Of a stretch of 64,000 nt of DNA, positions 1-64,000 are shown piece after piece (positions within the stretch are counted from its first letter, which is position 1; each line of letters opens with the position of its first letter). The stretch covers positions 15,758 through 79,757 of the forward strand of contig CAVTOM010000001.1 of the NCBI GenBank assembly GCA_963736365.1. Direction: 5' to 3'. The notes beneath the pieces are model-generated. The model was not told the DNA's origin, did not search any database, and saw nothing but the letters and a program-made list of their open reading frames with translations. Origin of the DNA: an uncultured bacterium. GTDB lineage: Bacteria > Actinomycetota > Actinomycetes > S36-B12. The position numbers and the translations under genes are program-made.

Positions 1-1
1 C

Positions 2-250
2 CCGCCCGTCAAGGGAGCCAGCATCGGGTGGGACGGCACGAAGGCGATCGTCGGCGGCCTGGCCGTCGGGGGCCCTGCTGACAAGGCTGGACTCAAGCTC
101 GGCGACGTCGTGACCGCCGTCGACGGCACACCCGTCACCACACGCGACGAGTTCTGCGCCTCCACGACGGGGCCGGATCCCAAGACGATCACCACCGCCG
201 CAGGAACGTTCGACGCCGCGCTCATCGACAACTTCTTCACCAAGCAGTAG
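2..250 (+). CDS. PDZ domain-containing protein, C-terminal fragment (5' end outside window)
   Basis: Frame 2 is open from the window edge to TAG 248-250. The translation ...GGLAVGGPADKAGLKLGDVVTAVDGTPVTTRDEF... has the GLxxGDV(V/I)xxV(D/N)G pattern typical of PDZ domains. Confidence 0.6.
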   Translation, partial: PPVKGASIGWDGTKAIVGGLAVGGPADKAGLKLGDVVTAVDGTPVTTRDEFCASTTGPDPKTITTAAGTFDAALIDNFFTKQ

Positions 251-462
251 TCAGGGCTCACCCGATGGTGGGTACACGCCGTGCGCCGCGGTTCCAGGGG
301 GCGCCGATGCGGCATCGTCACTAGGGTGAATGACGACTCGGTGAACGAAGAGGCCGCACGAACCGAATGAGGAAGCCCAGGGATGCCAGCCCACCCTGAC
401 CATGCGTTGCCGAACTAGCTCGACGCCCTGGACGACCCATCACCACCTCAAAGGAGAACACC

Positions 463-681
463 GTGGATCCGAAGATCGAGGACGCAGCAGGACGCATGAA
501 GGAAGCGGCAGGCACGCTCACGGGCAACGACGACCTCAAGGCCGAGGGCGCTGCCGATCAAGCCTCTGCCCAGGCGCACGAGGCCATCAATGAGGCGGCC
601 GACAAGGCCAAGGGCCTGGTCGAGGGTGTCACCAACGCCGCGGAGGGCGCCATCGACGCCGTCAAGGACAAGCTGTCGTAG
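463..681 (+). CDS. CsbD family general stress protein
   Basis: ORF-track 72 aa. GTG start at 463 is preceded by AAAGGAG. The sequence KEAAGTLTGNDDLKAEGAADQA...ADKAKG is the CsbD-like pattern. Confidence 0.85.
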   Translation: MDPKIEDAAGRMKEAAGTLTGNDDLKAEGAADQASAQAHEAINEAADKAKGLVEGVTNAAEGAIDAVKDKLS

Positions 682-771
682 GCAGCAGGGCTGCGGAGGC
701 CTCGTCCATGGCTCCGCCTCGTGGGATGGCCTCCCCGCGACGCCTCAGTCGACCATGAGAGGGGTGCCGGC

Positions 772-1960: not shown

Positions 1961-3374
1961 ATGAGGCGCCTGGGCGCTGTTGCGGTAGCGGTGCTTCTTC
2001 TGGTGTCGTCCGCGCCCACCGCGCACGCTGACGCAGGGCCGTCGGCCGACTACGAGAGCGCCTACCGGATCGGTCGGCAGGCCTACCTGTACGGCCTGCC
2101 GCTGCTGACGACGAACCAGACCTTCCTGACCATGACCAGCACGAACGTCCCCCAGGGCGCGTACGGACCGGTCAACCACGTCAACAGCGTGCGCAGCGCC
2201 AACACCGCGTCGAGCACGGCCGTGGTGGCGCCCGGGGCCAGCAGCCTGTCGTCGATCGCGTGGCTCGACCTGACCGCAGGAGCCCAGGTCCTGCACGTGC
2301 CGAAGGTCACGGACCGTGCCTTCGTGCTCGCCCTGCTCGACCCGTACACGACGAACCTCGTCAACCTCGGCTCGGCGTCCGGCACCGCGCCCGGTGACTA
2401 CGTCATCCGCTACGGCGGGCAGCGCTCCGTCGCCGATCCCGAGGGGCACGCACGCCGTCAACGTCGACTACAGCCGCATCTGGATGATCGGCTCGACCCA
2501 GCTCAAGGGGCCCGGCGACGTCGCCGCCGTCAACGCGGTCCAGGACGGCTACACCCTCACGCCACTCTCGGACTTCGTGGCCGGCACCACACCATCGCTG
2601 CCGGCGCCGACACAGCCGACGATCACCCCGTCCGCGATGCCCTCCGGTGTCGCCTTCTTCGACACCCTGGGCCAGCTCCTCGCGCAGTTCCCTCCGCCGG
2701 CTCGCGATGCTCCCGCCCTGCGCTCCTTCGCCACGGTCGGCGTCGGCCCGGGAATGGCGCCGTCGAGCGATCCACTTCTCAGTGCCGACACGCTGCAGGG
2801 CCTGGCAGACGCTGTGGCCGATGGACCGGCGCTTGTGAAGGAGGCGACGGCAGCGCTCCTGCGGACCGACTACCCCCACCACAACGGCTACCTCCTCGGC
2901 GGGTTCGGGCGCTACGGCACCGACTACACGGAGCGCGCGGTGATCTCACAGATCGGGCTCGGGGCCTTCACTCCAGGTCAGGCCATCTACGCGATGACGT
3001 GGATCGACCACGCGAAGGCGGCACTGGATGGGTCGCAGCGCTACGTACTGCACCTGCCGAAGGCGCCGCCCTCTCGCGAGGGCTGGTCACTGACGCTGTA
3101 CAGCCTCCGTGGTGGCCTGATGGCGAACCCGATCAACCGGTACGCGTTCACCGATACGTCCCTGCTGACCCGCAACCGCGATGGCTCGGTGGACATCTAC
3201 CTCCAGGCGACGGCTCCCGCGAGGGCCTCACAGCGGCGCAACTGGCTGCCCGTGACGGCCGGCCAGGGCTTCGAGGTGACCTGGCGCCTCTTCGCGCCCG
3301 ACCGCACCGACATCCCCGGCATCCTGTCCGGCTCGGGCTGGCAGCCACCGGTCGTCACCCGCGTCGGTCCCTGA
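1961..3374 (+). pseudogene. Secreted DUF1254/DUF1214 domain protein, frameshifted
   Basis: A signal peptide (MRRLGAVAVAVLLLVSSAPTAHA) and YLYGLPLL... lie in ORF 1961-. The homologous sequence continues in the ORF 2316-3374 frame (..VDYSRIWMIGSTQLKG.. ..NWLPV..). The frames join only with a 1-nt shift near 2420-2445. Confidence 0.75.
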
Positions 3375-3377
3375 GCG

Positions 3378-4783: not shown

Positions 4784-4793
4784 GGCGTTCTCC

Positions 4794-5601
4794 TCAGTGG
4801 TGCGCGGGGTCGACTGCAGGCGTGGCGGGGCCGGCGTGGGCGCCGATGATCGCGAGGAAGACCTCCTCGAGGGTCGGCTGCCGCTCGACGTACTCCACGG
4901 TGGCCGGGGGCAGCAGCGCCTTCAGCTCGGCGAGGGTGCCGTTCGCGATGATCCGACCCTCGTGCAGGATCGCGATCCTGTCGGCGAGCTGCTCGGCCTC
5001 GTCCAGGTACTGCGTGGTCAGCAGCACGGTCGTGCCCTGCCCGGCCAGCTGCCGGATGCTGCTCCAGACCTCGAGGCGCGACTGCGGGTCGAGCCCGGTG
5101 GTGGGCTCGTCCAGGAAGATGACCTCGGGGTCCCCGATGAGGCTCATCGCGATGTCGAGCCGGCGACGCATCCCACCGGAGTAGGTGGCCACCCGTCGAT
5201 CGGCCGCGTCGGCCAGCTGGAACCGGGCCAGCAGATCGGCCGCCACGTCGCGCTGGACCCACCACGTGGCGCAGTCGCGCCATGAGGACGAGGTTCTCGC
5301 GTCCCGTGAGGATCTCATCGACGGCTGCGAACTGCCCGGTGAGGCTGATGGCCTCGCGCACGCGTGCCGGCTGGGTGCCGACGTCGAGGCCCACGACGCT
5401 GGCGGTCCCGGCATCGGCCCGCAGCAGCGTCGACAGGATGTTGACGACCGTCGTCTTGCCGGCGCCGTTCGAGCCCAGGAGCGCAAACACGCTGCCGCGC
5501 TCGACGTCGAAGTCGACACCGCGCAGGACGTCCACGTCCTTGAACGACTTCTCCAGGTCCCGAACGTGCAGGGCCGGGGACGTGAGCGTGTGAGCCGTCA
5601 T
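4794..5601 (-). pseudogene. ABC transporter ATP-binding protein (DrrA-like), frameshifted
   Basis: Walker A (GSNGAGKTT) is in the ORF 4780-5601 frame. The signature and Walker B ([12 protein letters not shown]...[12 protein letters not shown]) are in the ORF 4794-5519 frame. The junction is near 5255-5265. The start ATG shares an ATGA overlap with the upstream gene's stop. Confidence 0.85.
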
Positions 5602-11081: not shown

Positions 11082-12522
11082 TCACGGTTCGGGTGTCGGT
11101 GTCCCCACGGCAGGGTTCGCGGCCAGGTACGCGACGAGCAGGCCGTGGTCATGCTCGGTGATGCCGGCGTAGGCGAGGGCGAAGTCGGCAACGGCGTCGT
11201 CGAAGGCGTCGTCGTCGCCCAGGTAGCCGGCCACCAGGGACGAGTCGCCCACCCGCGCGTGCGCCCGGGCCAGCAGGGCACCGCAGACGGCCGCGTAGTC
11301 CACGAGGGCGTCGCCGTCCAGCAGCGCGACGTCGATCGAGCCCTTGAGGTCGCGCAGCTGCCGGACGTAGAAGTCGACGGGGAGCTGCTGGCCCCCGCTC
11401 ATCCACCCGAGGAACGGGTCGCCGGCGGCCTGCATGACGCGCTGCCCGACCACGACTCGCTTCCCGGCGTTCCGGAACCGACTGGCCCCCAGGTACGGCT
11501 CGAGCACGGAGGCGTTGGCCTGCTTGATCTGCAGGATGAGCGGCTCCCCATCGCCGCTCTCGAGCAGCAGGACCAGGGCGAGGGTGCCCACGCTGCCGAC
11601 CCCGACCACCTTGTGGGCGAGGTCGATGAAGGAGTAGTGAGCCAGGAGGGCGAGCCGGTCGGGGGCGAGCGTCCGCAGGTAGGCCTCGTAGCGCGGAGCA
11701 AGCCCGGCGATGACGGCGTCGCGCTGGTCCGCGGGGACGGGGATGAGCAGGGGCGGCTGCGACCGGAATCGGCGGGTGCCGTCGACCACCTCGGTCAGCT
11801 TGTTCACCGCGGTGTCGCCCGTGCTGCGCCGCGACTTGGCCGTTGCCTTCTCCATGACGTCCTTGAGGTGGGACTTCCCGAGCTGCGCGAGGAGGAAGTC
11901 GGCATCCACCTTGACGTTCCACGCGTCCATGCGGCGCATGCCGCTCATGTACGCCGTCACCGAGCGATAGGCACCGGCGGCGGCGCGCGCCGTGCGTCGT
12001 GCCCGCTTGTCGGACGCGCCGCGCACGCGCGCGGCCACCGCGGCGCTCGCGGCGAGGCGGCGCACGTCCCAGTCGAAGGGCCCGGGAAGCGTCTCGTCGA
12101 AGTCGTTCACGTCGAAGACGAGCGTCCGCTCCGCCGAGGCGAACATGCCGAAGTTCGAGAGGTGGGCGTCCCCGCACAGCTGCACGGCGATTCCGCTCGT
12201 CGGAAGGCGGCTGAGGTCGGAGGCCATGATCGCGGCGGCACCTCGCAGGAATGCGAAGGGGTCGGCGGCCATCCGCTCGTAGCGCAGCGGCACGAGGAAC
12301 GGCTCGCGGACGGACTCCTGCGTCCGCAGGATCGCGATCGGGTCGGGGCGATCCGCCAGCGTCTGGCGGCGTGGCGAGCGCGGCCCGCGGCACCTGCTCG
12401 CGTCGCGCGCGGCCCTCGGCGGCCCGCCGGTCCCGCGTGGGCCGTCGCTGCGACAGGAAGGTCGCTGAGTCGACCCGGAACTCGGGTCCTTCCATCGGGT
12501 CCACGGATTCTGTGGCGCTCAT
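11082..12522 (-). pseudogene. DUF2252 domain protein, frameshifted
   Basis: The C-terminal 403 aa (LVPLRYERMAADPFAFLRGAA...CGDAHLSNFG...) is in ORF 11082-12293. The N-terminus (MSATESVD...GRARREQVPRAALA) is in another frame starting at 12522. ...DRPDPIAILRTQESVREPF reads in the C-terminal frame. The junction is near 12340-12360. Confidence 0.8.
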
Positions 12523-13809: not shown

Positions 13810-14529
13810 ATGATCGGACGACGCATCCTGCGCGGGGCAGCCGTCGCTGTCGCCGTGCTCCTGCCTGTGGGCCTCGTGGCAGCCAGCCCGGCCACGGCGG
13901 CACCCGCCAAGCCGAAGACCGCCACGGTCTCGGTCCTGCACGGCATCCCTGGCCTGACGGTCGACGTCTACGCCAACGACGCCCTGCTCATCGATGACTT
14001 CACCCCGGGTCCCTGAAGACGGTCAAGGTGCCGGGCGGCACCTACAACCTGGAGATCTTCCCGGCGACCTCGACTGACTCCAGCGGGACGCCGGTGCTGC
14101 AGGGCTCGGCGACCGTGGCGAACGGCAAGAACTACACCGTGACCGCGAACCTCACCGCCACGGGAACCCCGGCCCTGAACGTGTTCGTCAACAACATGGC
14201 CCCGATCGCCAAGGGTGCGAAGAAGGGCCGCGTGACCGTGCGTCACATTGCCGCGGCTCCCGCCGTCGACGTCTTCGTCAACGGCAACGTGGCCTTCTCC
14301 GGCCTGACGAACCCGAACCAGGTCCAGACCGTGCTCCCGCGCGGCGTCTACCAGACGGCGGCAGGCCTCGCCGGCGCCGGAACCGCCGGCATCGCGCTCG
14401 GCCCGGTGCCGCTGCCGGTCAAGGCCGGCTTCAACGTCGATCGTGTACGCGTGGGGCGTCCCGCAGGCCGCGGGCGGCGCCGGCGTGCAGGTGGCGGTGC
14501 AGTACGTGAAGCTGGCGATGCCGAAGTAG
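13810..14529 (+). pseudogene. Secreted DUF4397 domain protein, frameshifted twice
   Basis: Signal peptide MIGRRILRGAAVAVAVLLPVGLVAASPATA. ..VSVLHGIPGLTVDVYAN.. continues after a shift near 14012 (..LKTVKVPGGTYNLEIFPA..). After a second shift near 14448 it continues as ..IVYAWGVPQAAGGAGVQVAVQYVKLAMPK, ending at TAG 14527-14529. Confidence 0.7.
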
Positions 14530-14619: not shown

Positions 14620-16114
14620 TCAGCCGCGCGTCGGCGCCCGCCACCGTGGCCGCAGCGCGTCGGACGCCGCCAGGCCGAGGGCCGACTCGAGCGCCCGCCC
14701 GACGGCGAGCAGGGTCGGCTCCGAGCCTGCGGGTCCGACGATCGACAGGCCGACGGGCAGCCCGTCCACCAGGCCCATCGGCACCGTCAGGATCGGCCAG
14801 CCCAGGATGGCGGCCGGCGTGCAGACGGCCCCGCCTCCGTCGAGGAGGTCGCCGAGCGTGAGGTCCGACTTCCATGACGGCTGGTACGCGGGTGCGAGGA
14901 GCACGTCGGTCTCGGCGAGCGCCGGGCCGAGGCACGCGTCGCGGGCGAACGCGAGGTTGGCGGCACGCGCCTCCTGGTACCGGGTGCGAGGCGCGACCGC
15001 CGGCGAGCGAGTGCCTGCTCGAAGAACTCCTGTCCGAAGGCGGCAAGCTCGATCTCTGCGTGCGCGGCGTTGAAGGCGACCACGTCGGCCAGGCACGCGC
15101 ACGCCCGCGCCCGTCCCGGGCCGCGAGGTAGGCGTCCAGGTCGTCGAGGACGTCGCCGAGCAGGACGTCGACCTGGTCGGCGTGAACCTGGCCAGGCGTG
15201 AACGGCACCGGGGACGACCGGACCGAGGCCAGCAGCGGGGTCACCGCGGCCACCGCGCGCTCGAACAGCGCGTCGGTCGCGGGCGTGGCCGGTGAGCCAC
15301 GCCTCCACCACGCCCGCGCGCACCGTCCCCGCGGCCCCGGGGCGCAGGCGGGCAGGCAGTCCGTGCGCCCGGAGATCGCCTCGTAGACGACGGCCGCATC
15401 TGGGACCGAGCGGGCCAGCGGCCCGGCCACGTCCTGCGTCAGGCTGACCGGCACGATGCCCGACGAGGGAACCGAGCCGACCGTCGGCTTCAGGCCCACC
15501 ACCCCGTTGAGCGCGGCCGGGCAGGTGATCGAGCCGTTGGTCTCCGTGCCGACGGCGGCGAAGGCCAGGCCGGCCGCGACCGCCGCTCCGGAGCCCGACG
15601 AGGAGCCGCCCGCGCTGCGGTCGAGTGCCCAGGGGTTGCCCGTCAGCCCACCGACCCCCGACCAGCCGCTCGTCGAGTGCGGTGAGCGGAAGTTGGCCCA
15701 CTCCGACAGGTTCGTGGAGCCGAGGATCACGGCTCCGGCCGCCCGAAGCCGAGCCGCCACGGGGGAGTCCTGTCGCACCGTGCGGCCGGCGAGGGCCGTC
15801 GACCCGGCGGTGGCGGGCAGCCCGATCGCCTCGATGTTGTCCTTCACGAGCACCGGCACCCCGTGCAGGGGGCCGAGCGTGCCGCCGGACCGCTGCTCTG
15901 CGTCTCGTGCCGCCGCCTCGGCGCGGGCGTCAGGAGCGAGGGCGAGGACGGCGCGCAGGGCTGTGGGCGTCCCGGGGGCGTCCACGGCGTCGATGCGCTC
16001 GAGCAGGAGCGCGGTGACTGCTCGACTGCTCTGGTGCCCGGCGCGCAGCTCGTGTGCGATGCCGGTCAACGTGCCGGCGGCGTGTCCGGAGGACGGGGGG
16101 TGCGGGTCGGTCAT
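14620..16114 (-). pseudogene. Amidase (amidase signature family), multiply frameshifted
   Basis: The N-terminal half is intact (..VKDNI..GGSSSGSGAAVAAGLA..GTETNGSITCPA..). The C-terminal half is recoverable only by hopping between three frames (..VRAGVVEAWLTGH.. / ..DVVAFNAAHAEIELAAFGQEFFEQA.. / ..LTVPMGLVDGLPVGLSIVGPAGSEPTLL..). There are at least 3-4 junctions between about 15330 and 15000. Confidence 0.85.
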
Positions 16115-16268
16115 GGCCCCACCCTTGCGCATCCCCCTGCCGGGCGCTGGCACTCGCAGTGCTGCACCGAGGCGCGCCGCACGAGGCGACGAGCCTGCGC
16201 CTGCCCCTACGCTCGGGACGTGCTCATGTCGTCGTCGGACCCGGGCGACCTCGCGGAGGCCGAGGCGC

Positions 16269-18286
16269 GTGCAGGCGACCGAGCGTCGGCTGGCTCTCGA
16301 GCTGGCCGAGGAGCTCGGTGACGTCGTCTTCGCCCTGGAGGTGGCGCCGGAGCTGCGCTACCTCTACGTGTCCCCGTCGGCGCTGGCCTTGGTCGGCTAC
16401 AGCCCCGAGGAGCACTACGCCGACGCCGAGCTGGCGATGAGCCTGCTGGACCCCGACGACCGCCAGACGTTGATGGAGGCGCTGTCGGCCGACACCGACG
16501 ATGTCATCTCGGTGACCGTCCGCTACCGCACGCGGTCGGGAGAGCGACTGTGGCTGGACAACCGCTGCCGGCGGGTGATCCACCCGGACGGCCGCGTCGT
16601 GGTCTACGGCGCGGCGCGCGACGTCACCGCCTTCCGGCTGGCCCAGGAGCGCCTGATGGAGGAGCGCGAGCGCTACAAGCTGCTGGCGGAGAACAGCCGA
16701 GACGTCGTCTACCGCACGGACGTCACCGGGGTCATCACGTGGATCTCCCCCTCGGTCACGGCGGCGCTCGGCTGGCAGTCCGGAGGACCTCGTCGGCCGG
16801 CGCGTGTCCGACTTCGTGCATCCGGACGACCTCGTCCACGTGCGGGCTCAGCAGCAGGCCATCCGGGCCCGCGGCGACGTCCGGGGCGAGGTCGAGCTGA
16901 GGTTCCGCACCGCGGTGGAAGGGTGGCGGTGGATGCGCGTGACCGGCCGGCTCCTGCTCGACGAGGAGGGGCGGCCCGTCGGCGGTATCGACGAGCTGCG
17001 GGACATCCAGACGGAGATGGAGACCCGCGCGCTGCTGCAGCGCGAGGTGGACCATGACGCCCTGACCGGCCTGGCCAAGCGCTCGCTCACGCTGGCCCGA
17101 CTGCAGGAGCACATCGACGCTCGCCCGCCGGGCGGCGTGGTGCTCCTGTGCGCGGGGGTCGACGGCCTCACGTCGGTCAACCAGACGTACATGCACACCG
17201 CCGGCGACCGCGTCCTGGCCGAGGTCGCCGAGCGGCTGGCCGCGCGTGGCCGGCGCCGCCGATCGCGTCGGGCGGGTGGCAGGTGACGAGTTCGCCATCC
17301 TGCTCCCGGACGTCGTGTCCGCGGAGGATGCCGCGACCGCGGCCGAGGCGGTCCTCGCCGCAGCCCGCGGTCCGGTGTCGATCGGTCCCCACGAGCTCGA
17401 CGTGTCGGTCTGCGTCGGCGTCGCGGTCTCGGACGGGACCGACGCCGAGGAGCTGCTCCGCGACGCCACGACGGCGCTGCGCCAGGCCGCCTCGCGCGGC
17501 AACGACCGCTGGGAGTTCCTCGACACCCGGCTCGCGACGGCGGCCCGGGCGCGCATGGCCGTGCAGGGACCGCTGCGCGAGGCCATCGCCGACGATGGCA
17601 TCCGGCCATGGTTCCAGCCGATCGTCACGCTCCAGGACGGCCGGATCTGCGGGTATGAGGCGCTGGCCCGGTGGGTGCTGCCGGACGGCTCGCTCGCCGA
17701 CACGGAGGACTTCCTGACCGGGGCCGAGCGCAGTGGCGTCATCGTCATGCTGGACGACGCCATGCTCCGGCACGCCCTCGCGGCCGCTGCCGGCATGAGC
17801 GAGGACCTGTCCATGGCCGTCAACGTGTCGGCGCAGACGCTCGAGGCGCGCGACCTCGCGCAGCGCGTCTCCCGGCACCTGCAGGACAGCGGCGTGGCGC
17901 CCGAGCGCCTCCACCTCGAGGTCACCGAGACCTCCCTGCTCCACGTCACCCGCGAGATGACGGACGTCATGCGGGCGGTGGCCGAGCTCGGCGTGGGCTG
18001 GTGGGTCGACGACTTCGGGACCGGATTCTCCTCGGTCACCCACCTGCGCGACCTCCCCGTCGCCGGGCTCAAACTCGACCGGTCCTTCACGGCCGACCTG
18101 CAGACCGACGAGCATCGGGCCCGCCAGCTGGCGCTCGGCCTCGTCGGGCTCGCGCGGGGACTCGACCTCGACACCGTGGCCGAGGGCATCGAGACGCAGG
18201 CCGACGCCGACCTGCTGGCCGGACAGGGTTGGGCCAAGGGCCAGGGGTGGCTGTTCGGGCGTGCCGCACCGGACCTGCGCGCCTGA
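16269..18286 (+). pseudogene. PAS-PAS-GGDEF-EAL c-di-GMP protein, frameshifted
   Basis: Two PAS domains are present (..YKLLAENSRDVVYRTD..WISPSV..). The GGDEF domain carries AGDEF (..GRVAGDEFAILL..). The EAL domain has EALARW, DDFGTG and EGIET. Junctions are near 16779 and 17245. The start is GTG 16269, or ATG 16226 if a further shift is assumed. Confidence 0.85.
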
Positions 18287-18342: not shown

Positions 18343-18483
18343 GTGTCGTACCTGCTGGCCGCCGTCGCGGTCGCGCTGCCGACCGTGCTCGTCGTGTCGG
18401 TCCTTCGCGGCCGGACGCGGGTGAGGTGCTGCTCGGTGGCGCCGGAGCATGATCTGCGCATGCGTGACGCCATGCGCGAGTGA
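18343..18483 (+). CDS. Candidate small membrane protein (46 aa) with a CC motif
   Basis: GTG 18343 gives [46 protein letters not shown]. About 90% of third positions are G/C. Its stop overlaps the CDF start (GTGATG). There is no homology support. Confidence 0.3.
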
Positions 18484-19432
18484 TGACGGCGCACTCGGGG
18501 GTCAGCCCCCGGCTCATGCAGTGGGCGTGGCTGTCGATCGCCGCCGCCGTCGTCACCATCGGGCTGAAGTCGGCCGCCTACCTCGCGACCGGATCGGTCG
18601 GCCTGCTGTCCGACGCCCTGGAGTCGGTCGTCAACCTCGTCGCCGCCGTGCTGGCCCTGATGGCGATCCGCATCGCGGCCCGGCCCGCGGACGACTCGCA
18701 CCACTTCGGCCACGGCAAGGTGGAGTACTTCTCTGCCGGTGCCGAGGGCCTCATGATCCTCGTGGCCGCCGCTCCTCATCCTCGTGTCCGCGGTCTCCCG
18801 CCTGGTCGAATCCCCAGCCGCTGGAGGCGCTCGGAGTCGGTATCGCCATCACCCTCGTCGCTACCGCGGTCAACGCGGTCGTCGGCACGCTCGTCCTGCG
18901 GGCAGGCCAGCGGCACCGGTCGATCACCCTGGTGGCCGACGGCCGGCACCTGCTCACCGACGTGTGGACGTCGGTCGGCGTCGTCGTCGGGGTGGGGCTG
19001 GTGGCCCTGACCGGGTGGCAGCCGCTGGACTCGCTCGTGGCCATCGCGGTGGCCCTCAACATCCTGTGGACGGGGTTCACGCTCGTGCGGCACGCGATGA
19101 ACGGCCTCATGGACCACGCCCTGCCGGCCGCGGACGTCAGTCGCCTTCGCGCCGCGCTCGGGGCGCTCGCCGCCGCCCATCCGGCGGGCGAGGTCGAGTT
19201 CCACGCCGTCCAGACGCGCGAGTCGGGCCGCGACCGCTTCGTGTCGATGCACGTGCTCGTACCGGGCTCGTGGACCGTGGCCCAGGGGCACGACCTGCTC
19301 GAGCAGGTCGAGTCGGCCGTGCACGACGTGCTCGAGGACGCGGTGGTCCACACGCACCTGGAGCCGCGCGAGGACCCGCGCTCCTACGGCGACGCGCGCG
19401 GCGGGTTCGCGGTGGGGGAGCGTCATGGCTGA
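18480..19432 (+). pseudogene. Cation diffusion facilitator (CDF) family transporter, frameshifted
   Basis: ..[30 protein letters not shown].. continues after junctions near 18772 and 18815 as ..[14 protein letters not shown] / [27 protein letters not shown].. Confidence 0.85.
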
Positions 19433-41177: not shown

Positions 41178-41190
41178 GCGCCGAGACTAC

Positions 41191-45318: not shown

Positions 45319-46436
45319 ATGACATCCGCCCGCCACGACGCCACCTGCCTCGACACCCTCACGCTGCGGAGCCCGGACGCCCTCGTGTCCGCGGTTCCCT
45401 ACCTCCTCGGCTTCACCCCGACCGAGAGCGCCGTCGTCGTGTGGCTGAGGCAGCGCCGGATCCTGCTGACCCAGCGCCTGGACCTGCCTTCCGTCGCCCA
45501 GCAGCACGCGGCGTGGCTGCGCGTGCCTGTGGTCCCACGACGCGGCCCGCCGTGCCGACGAACTCGTCCTCGTCGTGGTGTCGGCCGCCCCGGCGAACGG
45601 CGCGTTGCTCGAGGCGTTCGTCGACCGGGCGGACTCAGCGGGTGTCGCCGTTCGCGACCTGCTGCGTGTGGACGCGGGCCGGTGGTGGAGCCTGCTGTGC
45701 TCCGACCCGGACTGCTGCCCGGACGACGGACGCCCGGTGGCACCCGATGTCGCCGAGATGATCGCGGCCGAGTTCACGGTCCTCGGCCGCGCGCCGCTGC
45801 CCGACCGCGAGTCGGTCGTCGCGGCACTGGCGGAGGACCCGCAGCGCGCCGCAGCGGTGCACGCGGTCGGCCGCGAGGCACCCCGGCACGGCGCAGCCCT
45901 CGAGCGTTGGCGCACCGATCGCCTGGCGCTGGTCTCCGGGGTCGTCCTGGGGCATGACTCGCGCGCGACTCGACCGGCCGTCGCGTCTGGCGCGCATGCT
46001 CGACGGGCTGGCCGACATCCGGGTGCGCGACACGCTCCTGTGGGACGTCGCGCACCGCGAGCCCGAGTCCCTGCCTGCGGTCTTCGACGCGCTGGCCGGA
46101 CTGCTGCGCGCGGCTCCGACCGGTCGCGTGGCACCGGTGGCCACGTGCTGCGCCGTCGTCGCGTGGCTGCAGGGGGACGGAGCCCGCGCGCTGATGGCCA
46201 TCGAGCGCGCCCTGGCCGACGATCCGGACTACTCGTTGGCCCAGCTCGTCGGAGCGTCCCTGCAGTCGGGCCTGCCTCCTGCGACGTGGCGCGAGGCGAT
46301 GGCGGGGCTCGCACGCGACGACTGCCGGCACGGGCCGATCGGGGCCACGCGAGTGAGGCGGGCCACCGGAGGGGCGAGTTGTCCAACTCCGGGCCGGTCG
46401 CTATATTCGCGCACGGTCAAGAGTTCCAGCGCTTAG
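45319..46436 (+). pseudogene. DUF4192 domain protein, frameshifted
   Basis: ..LRSPDALVSAVPYLLGFTPTESAVVVWL.. is the DUF4192 N-terminus. After a junction near 45520 it continues as ..LWSHDAARRADELVLVVVSAAP..CCPDDGRP.. After a second junction near 45960 it continues as ..LDGLADIRVRDTLLWD..AWLQGDGA.. The last roughly 30 codons run into the riboswitch and may not be genuine. Confidence 0.7.
46379..46407 (+). promoter_or_regulatory. Candidate promoter of the SAM-IV/metY leader (TTGTCC-N17-TATATT)
   Basis: The -10-like TATATT (46402-46407) ends 7 nt before the first G of the riboswitch. TTGTCC (46379-46384) lies 17 nt upstream of it. Confidence 0.4.
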
Positions 46437-48056: not shown

Positions 48057-48059
48057 GCG

Positions 48060-49228
48060 ATGGCCGACTACGGACCGCTGTCCTACGACGGACCCCCTCC
48101 CGCCAGCGCCGCCTGGCGGGAGGGGGATCCCGTCGGCAGCGCGGCGATTCGCCGAGGTCGGTGACCTCATCACGGAGTCCGGGACCCGGATTCCGTCGGT
48201 CCGAGTCGCATACGAGACGTGGGGGACCCTGTCCGCCGACGGCACCAACGCCGTCTACATCTGCCATGCGCTGACCGGCGACGCCCACGTCACCGGGCCG
48301 GCCGGGGTCGGGCACGCGACGGGCGGCTGGTGGGACGGGCTGGTCGGTCCCGGCCGGGCCATCGACACCGACGAGTGGTTCGTCGTGTGCGCCAACGTGC
48401 TGGGCGGGTGCCAGGGGACGACCGGCCCCTCCTCGCTGGCCCCGGACGGACAGCCGTGGGGGAGCCGCTTCCCCGTCGTCACGATCCCCGACATGGTCGA
48501 GGTCGAGCGCCGCCTCACCGACGTGCTGGGCATCGACTCGTGGGCGCTCATGCTGGGCCCGTCCCTCGGGGGAATGCGCGTCCTCGAATGGATGGTGCGC
48601 CACCCCGATCGGGTGCGTGGCGGCCTGGTCCTCGGCACGACGGCGGCCGTGACTGCGGACCAGATCGGCACCCAGGAGACGCAGATCGCCGCGATCGAGG
48701 CCGATCCCGCCTTCCGCGGCGGGGACTACTACTCGGCGGGCAGGGGTGGTGGCCCGCACGTCGGCATGGGCATCGCCCGACGCATCGCGCACCTGACCTA
48801 CCGCAGCGAGACCGAGCTCGACCTGAGGTTCGGACGCGACCCGCAGGAGGGAGAGGATCCCCTGGCCGGCGGTCGGTTCGCAGTCCAGTCCTACCTCGAC
48901 CACCATGCCGACAAGCTCGCGCGCCGCTTCGACGCCAACACCTACATCGCACTCACCCGCGCGATGAGCCTGTTCGACGTGGGCAGCGGCCGCGGCGGCG
49001 TCGCCGCCGCGCTCGGAACCGTGCACGCCCCGCTGACCGTCGTGGGCATCGACTCCGACCGCCTGTTCCCGGTGCGGCTGCAGGCGGAGCTGGTCGAGCT
49101 CACCCCGGGAGCCGACCGCCTGCACATCGTGCAGCTCCCCATACGGGCATGACGGCTTCCTGGTCGAGGACGAGCAGGTCGGGGCCTTCGTCGCGCACGC
49201 CCTCGATCGGGTCCGCGACCCGCGCTGA
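48060..49228 (+). pseudogene. metX: Homoserine O-acetyltransferase, frameshifted twice
   Basis: ATG 48060 gives MADYGPLSYDGPPPASAAWREGDPVG. After a junction near 48145 it continues as ..RRFAEVGDLITESG...AYETWG..HALTGD..GPSLGGMRVLEW.. After a junction near 49137, in a CCCC run, it continues as ..YGHDGFLVEDEQV.. ending at TGA 49226-49228. Confidence 0.9.
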
Positions 49229-50327: not shown

Positions 50328-51983
<1,656 letters not shown>

Positions 51984-51991
<8 letters not shown>

Positions 51992-54790: not shown

Positions 54791-56871
54791 ATGGCCACCA
54801 GGACAGCCGCAGCCGCGGGGTACTCCGCCAAGGACCTCGCGGTGCTCGAGGGGCTCGAGGCGGTCCGCAAGCGCCCCGGCATGTACATCGGCTCCAACGA
54901 CGGCCGCGGCCTCATGCACTGCCTCTGGGAGATCCTGGACAACGGCATCGACGAGGCGCTCGCCGGTCACTGCAGCCGCATCCAGGTGATCCTGCGCGCC
55001 GACGGGTCCGCGGAGGTCCTCGACGACGGCCGGGGGATCCCCGTCGATGTCGAGCCGAAGACCAAGCTCACCGGCGTCGAGGTCGTGCTGACCAAGCTGC
55101 ACGCCGGCGGCAAGTTCGGCGGCGGCTCGTACGGCGCGTCGGGCGGACTGCACGGCGTCGGCGCGTCGGTGGTCAACGCCCTGTCCGCCCGGCTCGACGT
55201 CGAGGTCGACCGGGGCGGGAAGATCCACATGATGTCCTTCCGGCGCGGAGTTCCCGGGCTCTTCGACGGTGCCCGACGAGAATGCGTCGTTCACGCGCAA
55301 GGGCGGGCTGCAGATCGTCGGGAAGTGCCCCCGGGCGAAGACGGGCACCCGCGTGCGGTGGTGGGTCGACCGCCAGGTGTTCACGAAGGACGCGGACTAC
55401 GACCGCGAGGCCCTTCGTGAGCGCGCCATGCAGAGCACGTACCTCGTCCCCGGCCTGACGATCGCGCTGCGCGACGAGCGCGATCCAGCGGACGTCTGGG
55501 AGGAGTCGTACCAGCACAAGGGCGGCATCGCCGAGTACGTCGAGTACCTGTCGCCGGGGGAGGGGGTGACCTCCATCGTCCGGCTCACCGGGCAGGGGCA
55601 CTTCCAGGAGACGGTGCCCGTCCTCGACGCCAAGGGCCACATGTCACCGCAGGAGGTGCAGCGCGACCTCCACGTCGACATCGCCATGCGCTGGGACACC
55701 GGCTACGACACCTCGCTTCGCTCCTTCGTCAACGTCATCGCCACGCCCAAGGGCGGCACCCACGTGGCCGGCTTCGAGCGCGCCATGGTGAAGGTCCTGA
55801 ACGACCAGCTGCGCGCGGCCAAGGTGCTGCGAGCCACCGAGGACAACATCGCCAAGGACGACGTCATGGAGGGCCTGACCGCCGTCGTCGCGGTGCGGCT
55901 GGCCGAACCGCAGTTCGAGGGGCAGACCAAGGAGGTGCTGGGCACGCCGGCCGCGTCCCGCATCGTCGGCAACGTCGTCACCAAGGAGCTCACGTCCTGG
56001 CTGGTGTCGCCGCCGCGCGGGGAGAAGGCGGCCGCCAAGGCGGTGCTCGAGAAGACGGCCAACGCCATGCGGGCGCGCGTGGCCGCTCGCGCCCACCGCG
56101 ACACGCAGCGGCGCAAGACGGCCCTGGAGTCCTCGGCGCTGCCCGGCCAAGCTGGTCGACTGCCGAAGCGACGACGTCGAGCGCACCGAGCTGTTCATCG
56201 TCGAGGGCGACAGCGCCCTCGGGACGGCGAAGACGGCGCGCAACTCCGACCACCAGGCGCTGCTGCCGATCCGCGGCAAGATCCTCAACGTCCAGAAGTC
56301 CTCGCTGGCGGACATGCTGAAGAACGCCGAGTGCGCCTCGATCATCCAGGTCATCGGGGCCGGCTCGGGGCGCACGTTCGACCTGGCCCAGGCTCGCTAC
56401 GGCAAGGTCATCCTGATGTCCGACGCCGACGTGGACGGCGCGCACATCCGGTGCCTGCTCCTGACCTTGATCCACCGCTACCTGCGGCCGCTGCTGGACG
56501 ACGGCCGGGTGTTCGCGGCCGTGCCGCCCCTGCACCGCGTCGAGATCATCTCGCCGGGCTCGAAGGCGAACGAGGTGATCTACACCTACTCCGACGCCGA
56601 GATGCACACCGTCCTGAAGGACGCCGAGAAGCGCGGCCGACGGGTCAAGGAGCCGGTCCAGCGCTACAAGGGTCTCGGCGAGATGGACGCGTCCCAGCTG
56701 CGCGAGACCACGATGGACCCGGCGCACCGCACGCTGCGCCGCATCACGATGTCCGACGCCGAGGCGGCCGACGCGGTGTTCGACCTGCTCATGGGCAGCG
56801 ACGTCGCCCCTCGCAAGGACTTCATCGTCGAGGGGGCCGCGTCCCTCGACCGCGACCGCATCGACGCCTGA
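54791..56871 (+). pseudogene. parE: DNA topoisomerase (ATP-hydrolysing) subunit B, topo IV ParE/GyrB-like, frameshifted twice
   Basis: ..[45 protein letters not shown].. continues after a junction near 55270 as ..the transducer region.. After a junction near 56143 it continues as ..ELFIVEGDSA..PIRGKILNV..LMSDADVDGAHI..QRYKGLGEM.. Confidence 0.9.
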
Positions 56872-56965: not shown

Positions 56966-59056
56966 GTGGCGCCGAAGGCCATGGAGTCCGCAGCGCGACC
57001 CGGTGACGCAGGCGAGGGGGAGTACCGCGCTGTCGCCGAGGGCTACCTCGACCCGCTGTTCCACGCCAGCGACGGCGTGGTGCGGTGGATCGGGCCGTCC
57101 GTGGAGGCGGCGCTGGGCTGGTCACCGGACGAGCTGACCGCGACGTCCCTGGTCAGCCTGTGCCACCCCGACGATGCCGCCGACCTGGCCGCCCTGCTCG
57201 CGCGCGTCGATGCCGGGCACCCGGCTCGGGGGGTCGTGCGCCTGCGCTCGAAGTCGGGCGTGCACGCGTGGGTCCTGCTCTCTGTGGCGGCGGGCGTCGT
57301 CGTCGAGGGGCAGGTGGGGGCGGTGGGGTCCATCCGCGAGATCAACCGCCGCATCCATGCCGAGCAGCAGCTGCGTGGTGATCGCCGAGCACGCCTCCAA
57401 CGTGGTGTTCACCGCAGGACCCGATCACCGCGTGATGTGGGTCTCGCCCAACATCACCCGGATCCTGGGATGGCCGGCAGGCGATCTCGTCGGCCACGAG
57501 GTCGAGGAGCTCGCCCACCCCGATGACGTCGCCGGCCTGAGCGCGCTGCTGCAGCCCTGCTACGAAGGCTCGGATCCGTCGGCGCCGGCCGAACCGCTCG
57601 CGGTCCGGGTCCGTGCCCGCACCGGGGCCCTGCGCTGGGTGGAGGTCGCCGCGGCGACGCTGAGGGACGTGGACGGGACGCCCGGCCGGGGTCGTCGGAA
57701 GCCTGCTGGACGTCGACGACCTCGTCCGCGCGCGTGACCGCATCCGGGACGACGCCATCCGACTGCGGACCGTGCTCGACACGATGCTGGACGCGCACGC
57801 CGTCCTCATCCCCGTGCGCGGCGAGTCCGGCATCGAGGACTTCGTCTTCGCCGACGTGAACCAGACGGCGTGCCGGTACCTCGGCCTGTCGGCCGAGGAG
57901 ATCGTCGGGACGCGGATCACCGACCGGATGCCTGGGAACAGGGCCGTCGGCCTCGTGGCGCTGTACGCGCAGGCGATGGAGACCGGCGAGCCCCTCGTCA
58001 TCGACGACCTGCTCTACCCGGCCTTCGAGCTGTCAGGCACGGACCGCCACTTCGAGGTCCGCGCGGTCCGGTTCGACGATGCCCTGAGCCTCATCTGGCG
58101 GGATGTGACCGACCAGCGCGAGACCGTCGCTGCGCTGGCCGCGTCCGAGGAGCAGTACCGCCTGCTGGCGGAGAACTCCTCGGACGTCGTGCTCCGACGA
58201 CAGGCCGGCGTCGTCCAGTGGGCGTCGCCGTCGCTGACGACGATGCTCGGCTGGGATCCGGCAGGACTGGGTGGGCATGCGGTTCGAGGACGTGGTCCAC
58301 CCGGACGACGCCGTCGGGCTGACGGTCGACGACCTGCAGATCGGGGGAGGAGCGCACCTGGTGCGCCGATTCCGGGTGCGGGACCGCGAGGGCTCCTACC
58401 ACTGGGTGGAGTCCCACGGCGCGCCCTACCGGGACGGGCAGGGGCGCATCGACGGGATCGTGGCGAGCTTCCGCACGGTGGACGACGACGTCGCCCGTCA
58501 GGAGGAGCTCGACCACCGCGCCCGCTTCGACGAGCTAACCGGACTGCTCAACCGCAAGGAGATCCTCGATCGCATGGTCGGGCTCGGTGAGCACGCGCGA
58601 CGCACCGGAGCGGAGTCCGCAGTCCTGTTCTGCGATGTCGACCACTTCAAGTCGGTCAACGACGAGTACGGGCATGCCGCCGGCGACGCGGTGCTGCGTG
58701 AGATCGCGAGCCGCGTTGGGGGCTGCATCCGTCGTCGGGATCTGGCGGCGCGGGTCGGCGGAGACGAGCTGGTGGTCGTCCTGGACGGCGTGCACGGGCT
58801 GCCGGACGCACTCATGATCGCCGAGAAGATCCGGGCGGAGGTCGCGCGCCCGATCGACGTCGAGGGCCGTTCCGTGACGACCAGCGTGAGTATCGGCGTC
58901 TGCCTCGCGATCGCGGGGCAGTCCATCGATGCCCTGATGGTCCGGGCGGACGACGCGATGTTCCAGGCCAAGGCCCGGGGCCGGGACCGGGTCGTCGCGA
59001 TCGGGGATCCGCAGGCCGATGCACACGCGGGTGCGCCCCCGGAGGGCGCTGGCTAG
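56966..59056 (+). pseudogene. Multi-PAS diguanylate cyclase (GGDEF with GGDEL motif), about 3 frameshifts
   Basis: Four PAS-like modules are spread over four ORF-track frames: ..RWIGPSVEAALGWSPDEL.. / ..VWVSPNITRILGWPAGDL.. / ..LDTMLDAHAV..DFVFADVN.. / ..LLAENSSDVV..WASPSL.. The GGDEF domain follows (..VDHFKSVNDEYGHAAGD..RRRDLAARVGGDELVVVL). Junctions are near 57385, 57690 and 58265. Confidence 0.85.
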
Positions 59057-59065
59057 GCTGGATGC

Positions 59066-59602: not shown

Positions 59603-59606
59603 CGTC

Positions 59607-59990: not shown

Positions 59991-59999
59991 GCGCGGCGG

Positions 60000-60197: not shown

Positions 60198-60231
60198 GCG
60201 AGCTCCTTCGGGGTCTGGTGGCGGCGGGGGA

Positions 60232-61011
60232 CTAGCGGCAGCCGAGCTCGACGGTCCCGAGCCGGTCGAATCGGGCGACGACGGTGTCGCCGGGGGAGAC
60301 CGCCACGGCCTCGGTGAGTGCCCCGGCCATGACGACCTGGCCGGCGGCGAGGCCGCGTCCGCGGGCGGCCATGCGTCGGACCATCCAGGCGACGCTCGCC
60401 GCCGGGTGGCCCAGGACGGCGGCCCCGGAGGCGGTTGCCAGGAGCACGCCGTTCTTCTCGAAGGCGCACCCGGTCAGGCGCAGGTCGAAGCCGCGGGGCT
60501 CCACCCCCTGCCCGCCGAACACGAAGCCGGCGCAGGAGGAGTTGTCCGCGATGACGTCGGCGCCGGTGAACTTGTACCCGGCGAAGCGGGAGTCGAGCAC
60601 GTCGATGGCGGGGAAGACCAGGGCCGTGGCCGCCAGGACGTGGGCGGCGAGGACGTGGGGTCCGGCGAGGTCGTCCTTCAGCAGGAAGGCGACCTCGGGC
60701 TCGCAGCGCGGCTGGATGTAGTCAGCGCAGGTCAGGGTCTGCCCGGTGTCGAGCTGCATGTCGTCGGTGAGCCAGCCGTAGAGCGGTTCAGAGACGTTCA
60801 TCTGCCGCTGCTTCGCGACGCTGGTGAGTCCGAGCTTGGCGCCGATGACGACGGCACCGGCCTCGACGCGGGCCTGCACCACGGCGTCCTGCACCGTGTA
60901 GGCGGTGTCGGGGTCGAGGTCGGGGTAGGTGTTCGTCAACGGCTCGATCGCGGTCCGGCGCTCGGCGGCCTCGATCAGCCGCGCGGCGATCTGGTCCGTG
61001 GGCAGGCTCAT
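60232..61011 (-). CDS. 4-oxalocrotonate decarboxylase/2-keto-4-pentenoate hydratase family protein (dmpH position)
   Basis: This is the in-frame part of ORF 60232-62070 starting at ATG 61011 (MSLPTDQIAARL..). ..YTVQDAVV......GAKLGLTSVAKQRQMNV.EP.YG.L.. is the MhpD/DmpE/DmpH family pattern. Assignment as decarboxylase rests only on gene order. Confidence 0.8.
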   Translation of the reverse strand: MSLPTDQIAARLIEAAERRTAIEPLTNTYPDLDPDTAYTVQDAVVQARVEAGAVVIGAKLGLTSVAKQRQMNVSEPLYGWLTDDMQLDTGQTLTCADYIQPRCEPEVAFLLKDDLAGPHVLAAHVLAATALVFPAIDVLDSRFAGYKFTGADVIADNSSCAGFVFGGQGVEPRGFDLRLTGCAFEKNGVLLATASGAAVLGHPAASVAWMVRRMAARGRGLAAGQVVMAGALTEAVAVSPGDTVVARFDRLGTVELGCR

Positions 61012-62070
61012 GCGCGGTCCTCTGCTTCCGTGGTGGTGCCCTGCTCGGCGTGCTTGCGGGCCAGTTCGAGGGCGACGTCGATGATCATGTCCTCCTGGCC
61101 GCCGACGACCTGGCGCCGGCCGAGTTCGAGGAGGATCTCGGCCTGGCTCACGTTGTAGCGCTCGGCGGCGCGCTGGGCGTGCAGGAGGAACGAGCCGTAG
61201 ACGCCGGCGTAGCCGAGGATCAGGCCGGCGCGGTCGATGACCTGCTGGCGTGGCATGAGGGGCCGGACGACCTCCTCCGCGAGGTCCATGAGCTTGAGCG
61301 CGTCTACTCCGGTGCTGATGCCGTACTTGTCGCTCACCGCCGCGAGGATCTCGGTGGGGCAGTTGCCGGCCCCGGCCCCTAGGCCGGCCGAGGTGCCGTC
61401 CAGGTTCCTGGCGCCCTCCTGGAAGGCGGCGATGGAGTTGGACACGGCCATGGCGAGGTTGTTGTGGGCGTGGACTCCCAGCGGCACGTCGAGGGCCTGG
61501 ACGAGTGCGTTGACGCGGACCTTGACGTCCTCGGTCGTCATGGCGCCGGCGGAGTCGGCGATGTAGATGGTGTCGGCTCCGTAGGACTGCATGAGCAGGG
61601 CCTGCTCGACGAGGCCCTCGGGGGTGTTCATGTGGGCCATCATGAGGAAGCCGATGGCCTCCATGCCCAGTCCCTTGGCGACCTTGATGTGCTGCTCGGT
61701 GATGTCGGCCTCGGTGCAGTGCACCGCGATGCGGGCGACCTGCACGCCCATCTCGTTGACCTCGCGCAGGTCGTCGGCCAGGCCGATGCCCGGCAGCAGC
61801 AGGCAGGCGATCTTGGCGTTCGTGGTGACCTCGCAGGCCTTCGCGATGAGCTCCTTCTCCGGCACCGCGGAGAAGCCGTAGTTGAAGCAGGAGCCGCCGA
61901 GACCGTCGCCGTGCGCGATCTCGATGACCTGCACGCCGGCGGCGTCCAGGCCCTTGACGATCGCTGATGACGTCCTCGTCGTGGTACTGGTGGCTGATGG
62001 CGTGCGACCCGTCGCGGAGCGTCGAGTCGATGAGCCGGTAGTCGGGCTGCGCTGCGGTCGTGCTCGTCAT
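61008..62070 (-). pseudogene. dmpG: 4-hydroxy-2-oxovalerate aldolase, frameshifted
   Basis: ATG 62070 gives ..LIDSTLRDGSHAISHQY. After a junction near 61960 it continues as ..AIVKGLDAAGVQVIEIAHGDGLGGS..HAHNNL.. Confidence 0.9.
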
Positions 62071-63015
62071 GCCGACGCTCCTGCCTGCTGGGCGGACGTG
62101 TGGGACGCGATGGCCTCGCCGACCCGCTGCGCGGCGGCGGTCATGATGTCGAGGTTGCCCGCGTAGGGCGGGAGGTAGTCGCCGGCGCCCTCGACCTCGA
62201 GCAGCACGACGACGCGATGCGGGACGACGCCGCCGGGGGTGTGGAACGGACCCTCCTCGACAACCGGCTGGTTCTTCAGCCGGTAGCCCGGCACGTAGGC
62301 CTGCACGTCCTTCTCCATCGCGTACACGGATTCGATCACCGCGTCATGGTCGGTGCCCTCCGGCAGCGCGCCGAAGACGGTGTTGCGCATCATGATCGGG
62401 GGCTCGGCCGGGTTCAGGATGATGATCGCCTTGCTCAGCTCCGCCCCGCCGATCTCCCGCAGCGCCGTCGACGTGGTCTTGGTGAACTCGTCGATGTTCT
62501 GCCGCGTGCCCGGCCCCGCCGACTTGCGACGACACCGTCGACACCATCTCCGCATACGGCAGCGCCTCGACCGCGCGGCGGATCGCGTAGACCATCGGCG
62601 TGGTCGCCTGGCCGCCGCAGGTGACCATGTTGATGTTCGGCGCATCGAGGTGCTCGGTCAGGTTCACCGCGGCGATCACCTTGGGCCCGCGCGCCGCAGG
62701 CGTCAGGTCGACCGCCACGATCCCGGCGTCGGCGTACTGCTTGTAGTGCCGCACGTGCACGTACGCGCTCGTCGCGTCGAACACCAGGTCGATGTCGTCC
62801 GCGTGGTCCAGGATCCACTGAGGACCCTCATGCGGACCGTCGATGCCCAGGGCCTTCGCCCGGGCCAGGCCGTCGGACGCCGGGTCGATCCCCACCAGCG
62901 CCACCAGCTCCAGCGGCGTCGTGCCGATGCCGGACGCGTCCGTGCCCTTCAGCAGCTTCATCATCAGGTCCGTGCCGATGTTGCCCGACCCCAGGATCGC
63001 GCACCGCATGCTCAC
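62067..63015 (-). pseudogene. dmpF: Acetaldehyde dehydrogenase (acetylating), frameshifted
   Basis: ..[28 protein letters not shown].. continues after a junction near 62530 as ..[30 protein letters not shown].. It shares ATGA/GTGA overlaps with both neighbours. Confidence 0.9.
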
Positions 63016-63845
63016 TCACCCGCCATCTCTTGGCCGACTGCTCGTTCGCCATTCGGATCGTGATGGGACCGAGCCGGTCGAAGTCGGCGCGGAACACATC
63101 GCCCGGTGCCACCGGCACCATCGCGTGCAGCGCGCCGGTCATGATCACGCTGCCCGCCGGCAGCGTCGACGCCCATCGGCGCGAGCGTGTTGGCCAGCCA
63201 GGCCACCGCCGCCAGCGGATCGCCCAGCGCCGCCGCCCCTGCACCGGTGGCGACCACGTCGCCGTTGCGCGTGAACACCATTCCGAGCAGCCGCGGGTCG
63301 AAGCCCTCGATCGGGACCACCAGGCGAGCTCAGCGCGATGGCGCCGTTGCTCGCGAGGTCGGCCACCGTGTCGGCGAGCTTGATCCGCCAGTCCCGGCGA
63401 TGCGCGAGTCGACGATCTCCAGGGCAGCCACCAGCCCGGCCGTCGCGCGCAGCGCGTCCGAGGGCGTGCAGTGCGGACCGGCGAGGTCCGCCGAGAGCAC
63501 GACGCCGATCTCCGCCTCGATCCGCGGCGCGATGAACCGGTCCACCGGGATCTCCACGCCGTCGCGGAACACGCCGGACGCGAACACCGGACCGAAGTCA
63601 GGCTGAGTCCACTCCCAGCAGCTGCTGCATCGGCGGTGGACGTCAGCCCCAGCTTGTAGCCGGCCACCGTCTCGCCGTCGGCGAGCAGCAGCTGACACCA
63701 GATGCTGCTGGATGGCGTACCCGTCCTCCATGCCCAGTTCCGGAACAGCGTCCGTGAACGGCTCGATGGGGATCCCCGTGCGACGGGCGTCGTAGAGCGC
63801 CCGGCCCCACTCGCGCGCCTGCTCGGCGGTGACGATCGCGGTCAT
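63012..63845 (-). pseudogene. 2-keto-4-pentenoate hydratase (dmpE/mhpD position), at least 6 frameshifts
   Basis: ATG 63845 follows GGAAGGAG. The family sequence is recoverable only as short runs in alternating frames. The runs are ..GYAIQQHLV / QLLLADGETVAGYKLGLTS / PPMQQLLGVD / QPDFGPVFASGVF..EIVDSRIA / DWRIKLADTVADLASNGAIALS / LVVPIEGFDPRLLGMVFTRNG.. / ..LPAGSVIMTGALHAMVPVAPGD.. Confidence 0.8.
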
Positions 63846-64000
63846 GAACCGCTCCTTCCGGTGGAGGCATCTCGGTACCCGAGTCTGCGACTGATGGCAA
63901 GGCCGGCTTCGACAGTCGGCCGGGCGAAGCGCTTGAGCGAGTCGTTGGTGATGCGCTGGAGGGGCCCGGCCACCGAGACCGACGCCACGACCTCGTTGAG
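63842..64000 (-). CDS. IclR family transcriptional regulator, C-terminal fragment (5' end outside window)
   Basis: The reverse-strand frame reads ...LNEVVASVSVAGPLQRITNDSLKRFARPTVEAGLAISRRLGY..., the usual IclR effector-domain C-terminus. Its stop shares an ATGA overlap with the hydratase start. Confidence 0.7.
   Translation of the reverse strand, partial: LNEVVASVSVAGPLQRITNDSLKRFARPTVEAGLAISRRLGYRDASTGRSGS

Follow-up and report, generated by a model that had tools for sequence, protein, structure and literature searches.

Why should about 24 of the approximately 65 genes on one stretch of an actinobacterial genome be broken out of frame, with the principal sigma factor among them? The stretch in question, hereafter the window, comprises 64 kb of contig CAVTOM010000001.1 of assembly GCA_963736365.1, and all coordinates given below are positions in it. 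A total of ~51 frame-breaking insertions or deletions (indels) was found in these genes and ~12 more between genes, so the tally of 45-50 breaks in about 25 genes in an earlier note, made from the sequence alone, was accurate. The same note had attributed the breaks to uncorrected assembly indels and not to pseudogenization, and this is upheld by independent same-species assemblies, short-read ones included, that are free of the indels. Because these other assemblies lack them, we see in the breaks an artefact and not dying genes. With high confidence, they are consensus errors of a metagenome assembly and not mutations of the organism, and this core claim is strongly supported.

Same-species assemblies without the breaks

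Contigs of the same species were reached via the repaired topoisomerase, the repaired cysK, and window proteins identical in both. The search with the repaired topoisomerase yielded an intact protein of 692 amino acids that was 99% identical (P0001), and the search with the repaired cysK yielded intact proteins of 310 amino acids at 96-98% identity. Among the matches listed, 120 of 120 topoisomerase homologues were full length, and so were 120 of 120 cysK homologues (310-323 amino acids). Two contigs of the ENA assembly ERZ25039527 align with the window, contig_130046 (L146, L152, L155) over 837-30000 at 94.6-97.4% DNA identity and contig_68473 (L081, L148) over 34412-63652 at 96.6-96.7%. At the frame shifts of the window, these contigs are without the extra base and the genes are called intact, the exception being a break at ~2435. 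The “contig_N” names suggest that ERZ25039527 is a long-read assembly, and the assembly of the window was probably also made from noisy long reads.

Short-read data point in the same direction. Same-species Illumina/MEGAHIT contigs from other samples, 96.4-97.2% identical, span 10905-15807 (L153, L154) and 43625-45666 (L149, L150), and they contradict the window at all 14-15 indel sites spanned, including all seven in an amidase gene, where L146 contradicts it as well. The two extra bases in cysK are absent from L146 (97% identical) and from L147, a more distant Illumina contig (85% identical). Over 58607-60504, where the window itself is unbroken, five further Illumina contigs match it at 99.4-99.7% identity without a single gap. 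The identity of Illumina contigs, partly from the same ENA samples, thus depends on the locus (99.4-99.7% at 58607-60504 vs. 96.4-97.2% at 10905-15807 and 43625-45666), which suggests that several strains co-exist or that the consensus of the window is a mosaic.

The ENA contigs have at least 45 indels of their own, mostly +1 and located elsewhere than those of the window. Clusters of them lie in L152 at 4546-6957 (window 7.2-9.6 kb, a uvrA-like gene), in L148 at 1687-2123 (36.1-36.5 kb, an aldo-keto reductase), and in L081 at 2466-4065 (47.2-48.9 kb, metY and metX). The window is intact at these spots while the ENA gene calls are fragments. Two same-species assemblies with non-overlapping sets of frameshifts (~1 per kb), together with short-read contigs that have none, therefore argue for errors and not for mutations.

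Several other searches were negative. Exact-sequence look-ups of the intact uvrA-like protein, metY, and Glyoxalase_3 gave no recorded match, and a metagenome-contig scan with Glyoxalase_3 found only relatives at ≤85% identity and no same-species contig. A concatenated query (repaired PAS-GGDEF plus DUF4192) had no same-species match, as distant PAS/GGDEF proteins dominated (homologues of ~680-710 amino acids). No paper on either PRJEB19935 or ERZ25039527 was found in the literature.

No sign of gene decay

Once the gaps were removed, all 22 genes tested had a terminal stop only. Of the mismatches to the same-species references, 77-80% were at codon position 3, with no difference between broken and intact genes, and synonymous codon differences clearly outnumbered non-synonymous ones in both (282:73 in broken vs. 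175:63 in intact genes). Based on these ratios and on the share of position 3, purifying selection looks equal in broken and intact genes. The absence of in-frame stops and of decay, as claimed earlier, was hence borne out.

Location and count of the breaks

Four independent locators were used, namely a codon-usage Viterbi path of the coding frame, Pfam domains continuous over the junctions, frameshift-aware alignment to orthologues, and base-level alignment to same-species contigs. Tracing the frame by codon usage was chosen because the high guanine-cytosine (GC) content leaves long spurious open reading frames (ORFs) in all six frames. On its own, the Viterbi path overlooked breaks in the amidase gene, mis-stated those in the LPG_synthase gene, and did not find the start of rpoD, all of which was amended by the orthologue and same-species alignments. 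Domains unbroken over junctions included PALP (profile positions 1-294 in cysK, over two junctions), Amidase (3-445, over two), ABC_tran, DUF4397, Cation_efflux, GGDEF, Nitroreductase, and ADH_N, and further Adenine_glyco, AI-2E_transport, LPG_synthase_TM, DUF4192, FAA_hydrolase, AcetDehyd-dimer, and HMGL-like. In four loci of related metagenome-assembled genomes (MAGs; L001, L002, L003, L005), the orthologues are single ORFs, and the frameshift-aware protein-to-DNA alignment placed the shifts at identical coordinates whichever orthologue was used. All five genes or gene products that had been singled out earlier (rpoD, the topoisomerase B subunit, cysK, metX, and a CDF transporter) are affected. 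The broken genes are listed below in window coordinates.

1961..3374, plus strand: DUF1254/DUF1214 protein gene; one break at ~2435 (GCC[G]ATC), frame +1 to +2; Pfam DUF1254 match continuous over the junction.
4794..5601, minus strand: ABC transporter ATPase gene; extra C at 5253; ABC_tran over the junction; gap against L152, where the gene is intact (266 amino acids).
11082..12522, minus strand: DUF2252 gene; extra C at 12360, which cuts off the N-terminal ~55 codons; the base is neither in L152 nor in Illumina contigs L153 and L154, where the gene encodes 479 amino acids.
13810..14529, plus strand: DUF4397 gene; deletion of a C at 14010 and a one-base insertion at 14437-14439; Pfam domain over the junction; intact (239 amino acids) in L146, L153, and L154.
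14620..16114, minus strand: amidase gene; seven indels, with extra bases at 14613-14617, 14987, 15009, 15096, 15113, and 15279 and a missing C at 15343.
16226..18286, plus strand: PAS-GGDEF-EAL gene; extra bases at 16273, 16781, and 17243; PAS_3 and GGDEF over the junctions; intact in L146 (685 amino acids).
18483..19432, plus strand: CDF cation-efflux transporter gene; insertions at 18771 (G) and 18811 (T); Cation_efflux over the junction; intact in L146 (315 amino acids).
19425..21481, plus strand: PAS-GGDEF gene; insertions at 19445 (G) and 21309 (C); GGDEF over the junction; intact in L146 (684 amino acids).
22699..23633, plus strand: cysK (cysteine synthase); insertions at 23049 and 23420 (C in both cases), so that three frames are needed to read it; PALP over both junctions.
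26252..26903, plus strand: nitroreductase gene; extra T at 26404; Pfam domain over the junction; intact in L146 (216 amino acids).
29998..31154, minus strand: zinc alcohol dehydrogenase gene; break at ~30875, placed by ADH_N over the junction and a Viterbi frame change only, outside the same-species cover.
39385..39961, plus strand: tag (3-methyladenine glycosylase I); extra C at 39631; Pfam domain, frameshift-aware alignment to L001 and L003, and gap against L148.
40037..41183, minus strand: AI-2E family transporter gene; extra C at 40325; Pfam domain, shift put at 40325 by four orthologues, and gap against L148.
41191..41552, minus strand: small cupin-like gene; insertions at 41344 (C) and 41435 (T); three orthologues concur; intact in L148 (119 amino acids).
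42306..43423, plus strand: LPG_synthase_TM membrane protein gene; five extra bases at 42514, 42804, 42850, 42905, and 42928; Pfam domain and frameshift-aware alignment; intact in L148 (370 amino acids).
43621..44380, plus strand: GDSL lipase gene; close to the C-terminus, a G inserted at 44317 that is found neither in L148 nor in Illumina contigs L149 and L150.
45319..46356, plus strand: DUF4192 gene; extra G at 45525, extra A at 45968, and a possible extra C at 46346 at the stop codon; Pfam domain and frameshift-aware alignment; intact in L081 (343 amino acids), the base at 45525 also being absent from Illumina contigs L149 and L150.
48057..49228, plus strand: metX (homoserine O-acetyltransferase); insertions at 48141 (G) and 49132 (C); three orthologues concur; gaps against L081.
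50328..51991, plus strand: rpoD/hrdB principal sigma factor; eight-base insertion (CCCGCAAG) at 50580-50587, frame +2 to +1; intact in L081 (551 amino acids).
54791..56871, plus strand: type IIA topoisomerase B subunit (GyrB-family/topo IV B); insertions at 55270 (T) and 56142 (C); Pfam domain, three concurring orthologues, and gaps against L081.
56972..59062, plus strand: PAS-GGDEF gene; insertions at 57374 (C), 57680 (G), and 58262 (C), with an extra T upstream at 56875; gaps against L081; with the extra bases taken out, one clean ORF of ~700 amino acids (full-length homologues 683-706).
61008..62050, minus strand: dmpG-like 4-hydroxy-2-oxovalerate aldolase gene; two-base insertion (CG) at 61962-61963; HMGL-like over the junction; gap against L081.
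62067..63009, minus strand: dmpF-like acetaldehyde dehydrogenase gene; extra C at 62527; AcetDehyd-dimer over the junction; intact in L081 (314 amino acids).
63030..63860, minus strand: 2-oxopent-4-enoate hydratase-like (FAA_hydrolase) gene; at least five breaks at 63168, 63323, 63397-63398, 63603, and 63635; domain over three junctions and gaps against L081; frame changes at ~63694 and ~63858 from the Viterbi path only.

The gene rpoD starts with the ATG at 50328 in frame +2, and the switch point is visible in the three-frame translations, with which the frameshift-aware alignment concurs. Its eight-base insertion lies inside a low-complexity N-terminal repeat rich in Lys, Ala, Pro, and Thr, and 50328-50760 is open for long stretches in all three forward frames. 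The eight bases are probably one 9-nt repeat unit minus one base, and the number of N-terminal repeat units appears to differ between strains.

The breaks are clustered along the window (variance/mean 2.2 in 2-kb bins, p=5e-4). No securely called break lies within 26404-39631, but 30000-34412 is without reference and holds the one Pfam-inferred break at ~30875.

Kind of error

Within the 56.6 kb under same-species references, 49 events were securely polarised to the window, 48 of them called on frame or short-read evidence against the ENA contigs; the shared break at ~2435 is outside this set. It had been claimed that insertions and deletions both occur. They do, but not in a balanced mix, as 46 insertions face three deletions (p=7e-11) and ~94% of the events are single-base insertions.

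Homopolymers, to which some of the events had been ascribed, fared worse. The two examples that had been named lie beside C runs and not within them: the C inserted at 49132 stands between G and A, 5 nt ahead of CCCC, and the insertion at 18811 is a T directly preceding the other run. Among the inserted single bases, those touching an identical neighbour were significantly depleted (7/45 vs. 24.5±3.2 expected under random insertion). A link between indels and homopolymers, as in run-length errors of the nanopore, 454, or Ion Torrent type, was rejected, since 38 of the 45 inserted single bases stand in runs of length 1.

The insertions are tied to the codon. Among those within genes, 30/33 adjoin a third codon position and only 3/33 lie between positions 1 and 2 (binomial p=0.0013). 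Read as an alternative third-position allele, the inserted base is synonymous in 27/29 cases against a null of 0.70 (p=0.0028). The same applies to all six inserted A or T bases that adjoin a third position (GAC/GAT twice, GCG/GCA twice, CGC/CGA, and GGG/GGT). C/G makes up 76% of the insertion base pairs compared to 51% of real third-position single-nucleotide polymorphisms (SNPs), where it is the commonest kind. At 14437-14439, the window has GTCG where all three references have GCC, which fits a merger of GTC and GCC, GTC being in no reference.

Origin of the inserted bases

We consider it rather probable that the breaks are a consensus artefact at sites where co-assembled strains differ and not random read noise. 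The consensus would have been built from reads of two or more strains that differ at single sites, usually synonymous third-codon positions and mostly C vs. G. A consensus or polishing step might then have kept both alleles side by side rather than picking one, and the doubled allele would turn a harmless SNP into a +1 frameshift. Error clusters would be stretches where strain mixing or low depth beat the polishing, and clean stretches those where polishing worked; such a mechanism would thus also account for the observed clustering. We lean slightly towards the view that each +1 insertion is the second allele of a real, mostly synonymous SNP written beside the first, i.e. a “fossil” of strain variation. 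Strains at 96-99.7% identity do coexist in public samples. Comparison of local strain divergence with indel density revealed no obvious relation in per-gene mismatch counts. Graph-consensus tools may represent mismatches as an adjacent insertion plus deletion. The window resembles collapsed-haplotype or strain-mixture artefacts in that the inserted base behaves like the second allele of a neighbouring site (synonymous, mostly C/G, third position) and in its regional clusters. The exact signature was not found in the literature, and the ENA assembly shows it weakly.

Several observations weigh against what is proposed here. The break at ~2435 (GCC[G]ATC, 2429-2444) is base-for-base identical in ENA contig_130046. 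It is the sole shared one among the ~51, it has the same signature as the other insertions, and the short-read contigs do not reach the site. It is either a real mutation or pseudogene of the species or the same artefact arisen twice from the same allele pair. Same-species cover is missing for 1-836, 30000-34412, and 63653-64000, and the references stem from other samples and are 3-4% divergent, thus informing on the intact genes of the species and not on this template. The classic long-read signature of homopolymer deletions (PMC12007338, PMC8812927) is absent from the window. Concerning the doubling of alleles, a literature search for a consensus artefact that turns SNPs into insertions found no paper describing it, and its signature is only weak in the ENA contigs, where 11/39 insertions lie between codon positions 1 and 2 without depletion, while 22/25 are synonymous when read as an alternative allele (p=0.03).

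Random read noise, i.e. insertion errors left by low depth or missing polishing and unrelated to strain polymorphism, comes near to the earlier note's view and is a possible although distinctly less likely origin. The errors are clustered, as local depth would be, the ENA assembly's own errors show little codon-position bias, and long-read assemblies are known to retain indels (PMC12007338, PMC8302730). Such gene-fragmenting indels are documented in several studies (PMC12007338, Kastor; PMC8812927, Polypolish; PMC8011154, Homopolish; PMC8302730, Strainberry), and like these, the breaks in the window are single-base, split well-conserved genes, are private to one assembly and absent from short-read assemblies, and inflate pseudogene counts. 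However, the errors described as left over in long-read assemblies chiefly affect homopolymer length or are deletions (PMC12007338, PMC8812927), the opposite of the window, where 94% are insertions that avoid homopolymers and sit beside third codon positions. Noise predicts neither the scarcity of identical neighbours nor the preference for third positions nor the excess of synonymous alleles.

That the indels are real, due to massive recent pseudogenization (in a mutator, a dying, or a host-restricted strain) or to non-viable template DNA, is very improbable and close to refuted. They are present in the deposited sequence, the one at ~2435 recurs in an independent assembly, and many frameshift-interrupted genes are indeed reminiscent of reductive decay. 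Real decay, as in Mycobacterium leprae or recently host-restricted bacteria, leaves essential genes alone and is accompanied by in-frame stops, by deletions, and by relaxed constraint. The window, on the contrary, has not one premature stop or larger deletion and has kept its constraint, with synonymous changes far in excess of non-synonymous ones, while rpoD and the topoisomerase subunit are broken. Real indels would have inactivated these two together with cysK, metX, and ~20 further genes at once, with seven hits in 1.5 kb of the amidase gene. The other same-species assembly has a different set of ~45 indels in other genes, each short-read contig over a site is clean, and there is no reason for true mutations to mimic synonymous alternative alleles. 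Decoding of the breaks in the cell by programmed ribosomal frameshifting or transcriptional slippage is of negligible probability and was rejected, as the protein sequence carrying on in another frame is all that speaks for it, while the sites are conserved neither in relatives nor in the same species (which read straight through where tested), lack a slippery heptamer or homopolymer tract, and would have to number ~50 in 24 unrelated genes with up to seven per gene.

Host and gene content of the window

The host, an actinobacterium of high GC content (71%), has its relatives among uncultured Actinomycetota and “Candidatus Nanopelagicales” MAGs, which were the nearest genomes in a scan of GTDB species genomes. 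Gene order is conserved in the nearest MAGs, and their metY is at most 94% identical to that of the window. GC content is uniform along the 64 kb (70-73%), and a tRNA scan found no tRNA genes therein. The gene set is of actinobacterial type and contains rpoD/hrdB, a GyrB-family topoisomerase IV B subunit, cysK-cysE, and metY-metX, as well as pyruvate:ferredoxin oxidoreductase, a uvrA paralogue, three PAS-GGDEF(-EAL) genes, and a dmpFG meta-cleavage cluster. The metY-metX pair is preceded by an intact SAM-IV riboswitch at 46415-46519 on the plus strand (Rfam RF00634, 103 bits vs. a gathering score of 38); just outside of it, the ENA contig has indels of its own at 46411 and 46628-46688.

An intact UvrA-like ABC ATPase of 794 amino acids is encoded at 7222-9606 on the minus strand, with neither uvrB nor uvrC nearby, and is probably a class II UvrA paralogue. 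The genes for a GT87-family membrane protein (52800-54390) and for the third PAS-GGDEF protein (56870-59060) have no counterpart at the syntenic loci of the related MAGs L001 and L003, and both are present in the same-species contigs. Judging from this comparison of loci, they are putative variable accessory genes within an otherwise conserved neighbourhood. The region of a DUF1048 gene (5584-5980) shows many gaps of 2-9 nt within 400 nt against the same-species contig. This segment looks truly divergent or replaced and not erroneous, and the region was excluded from the error counts.

Consequences for annotation and strain variation

About a third of the genes of this record will end up as pseudogene calls or split ORFs. 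What is inferred on the completeness and metabolism of the MAG will be wrong, and the fragments will pollute protein databases. Polishers that focus on homopolymers would miss such errors, while correction based on codon frame or homologues would find them. The host itself almost certainly has intact rpoD, topoisomerase, cysK, and metX as well as intact versions of the other affected genes, and for its biology the finding is of little import: it is an ordinary one that serves as a data-quality flag. If alleles are indeed doubled, an inserted base that adjoins a third position, differs from its neighbours, and is synonymous as an alternative allele would constitute a read-free signature, one that could serve both to mend such MAGs without any reads and to retrieve the SNPs of their strains.

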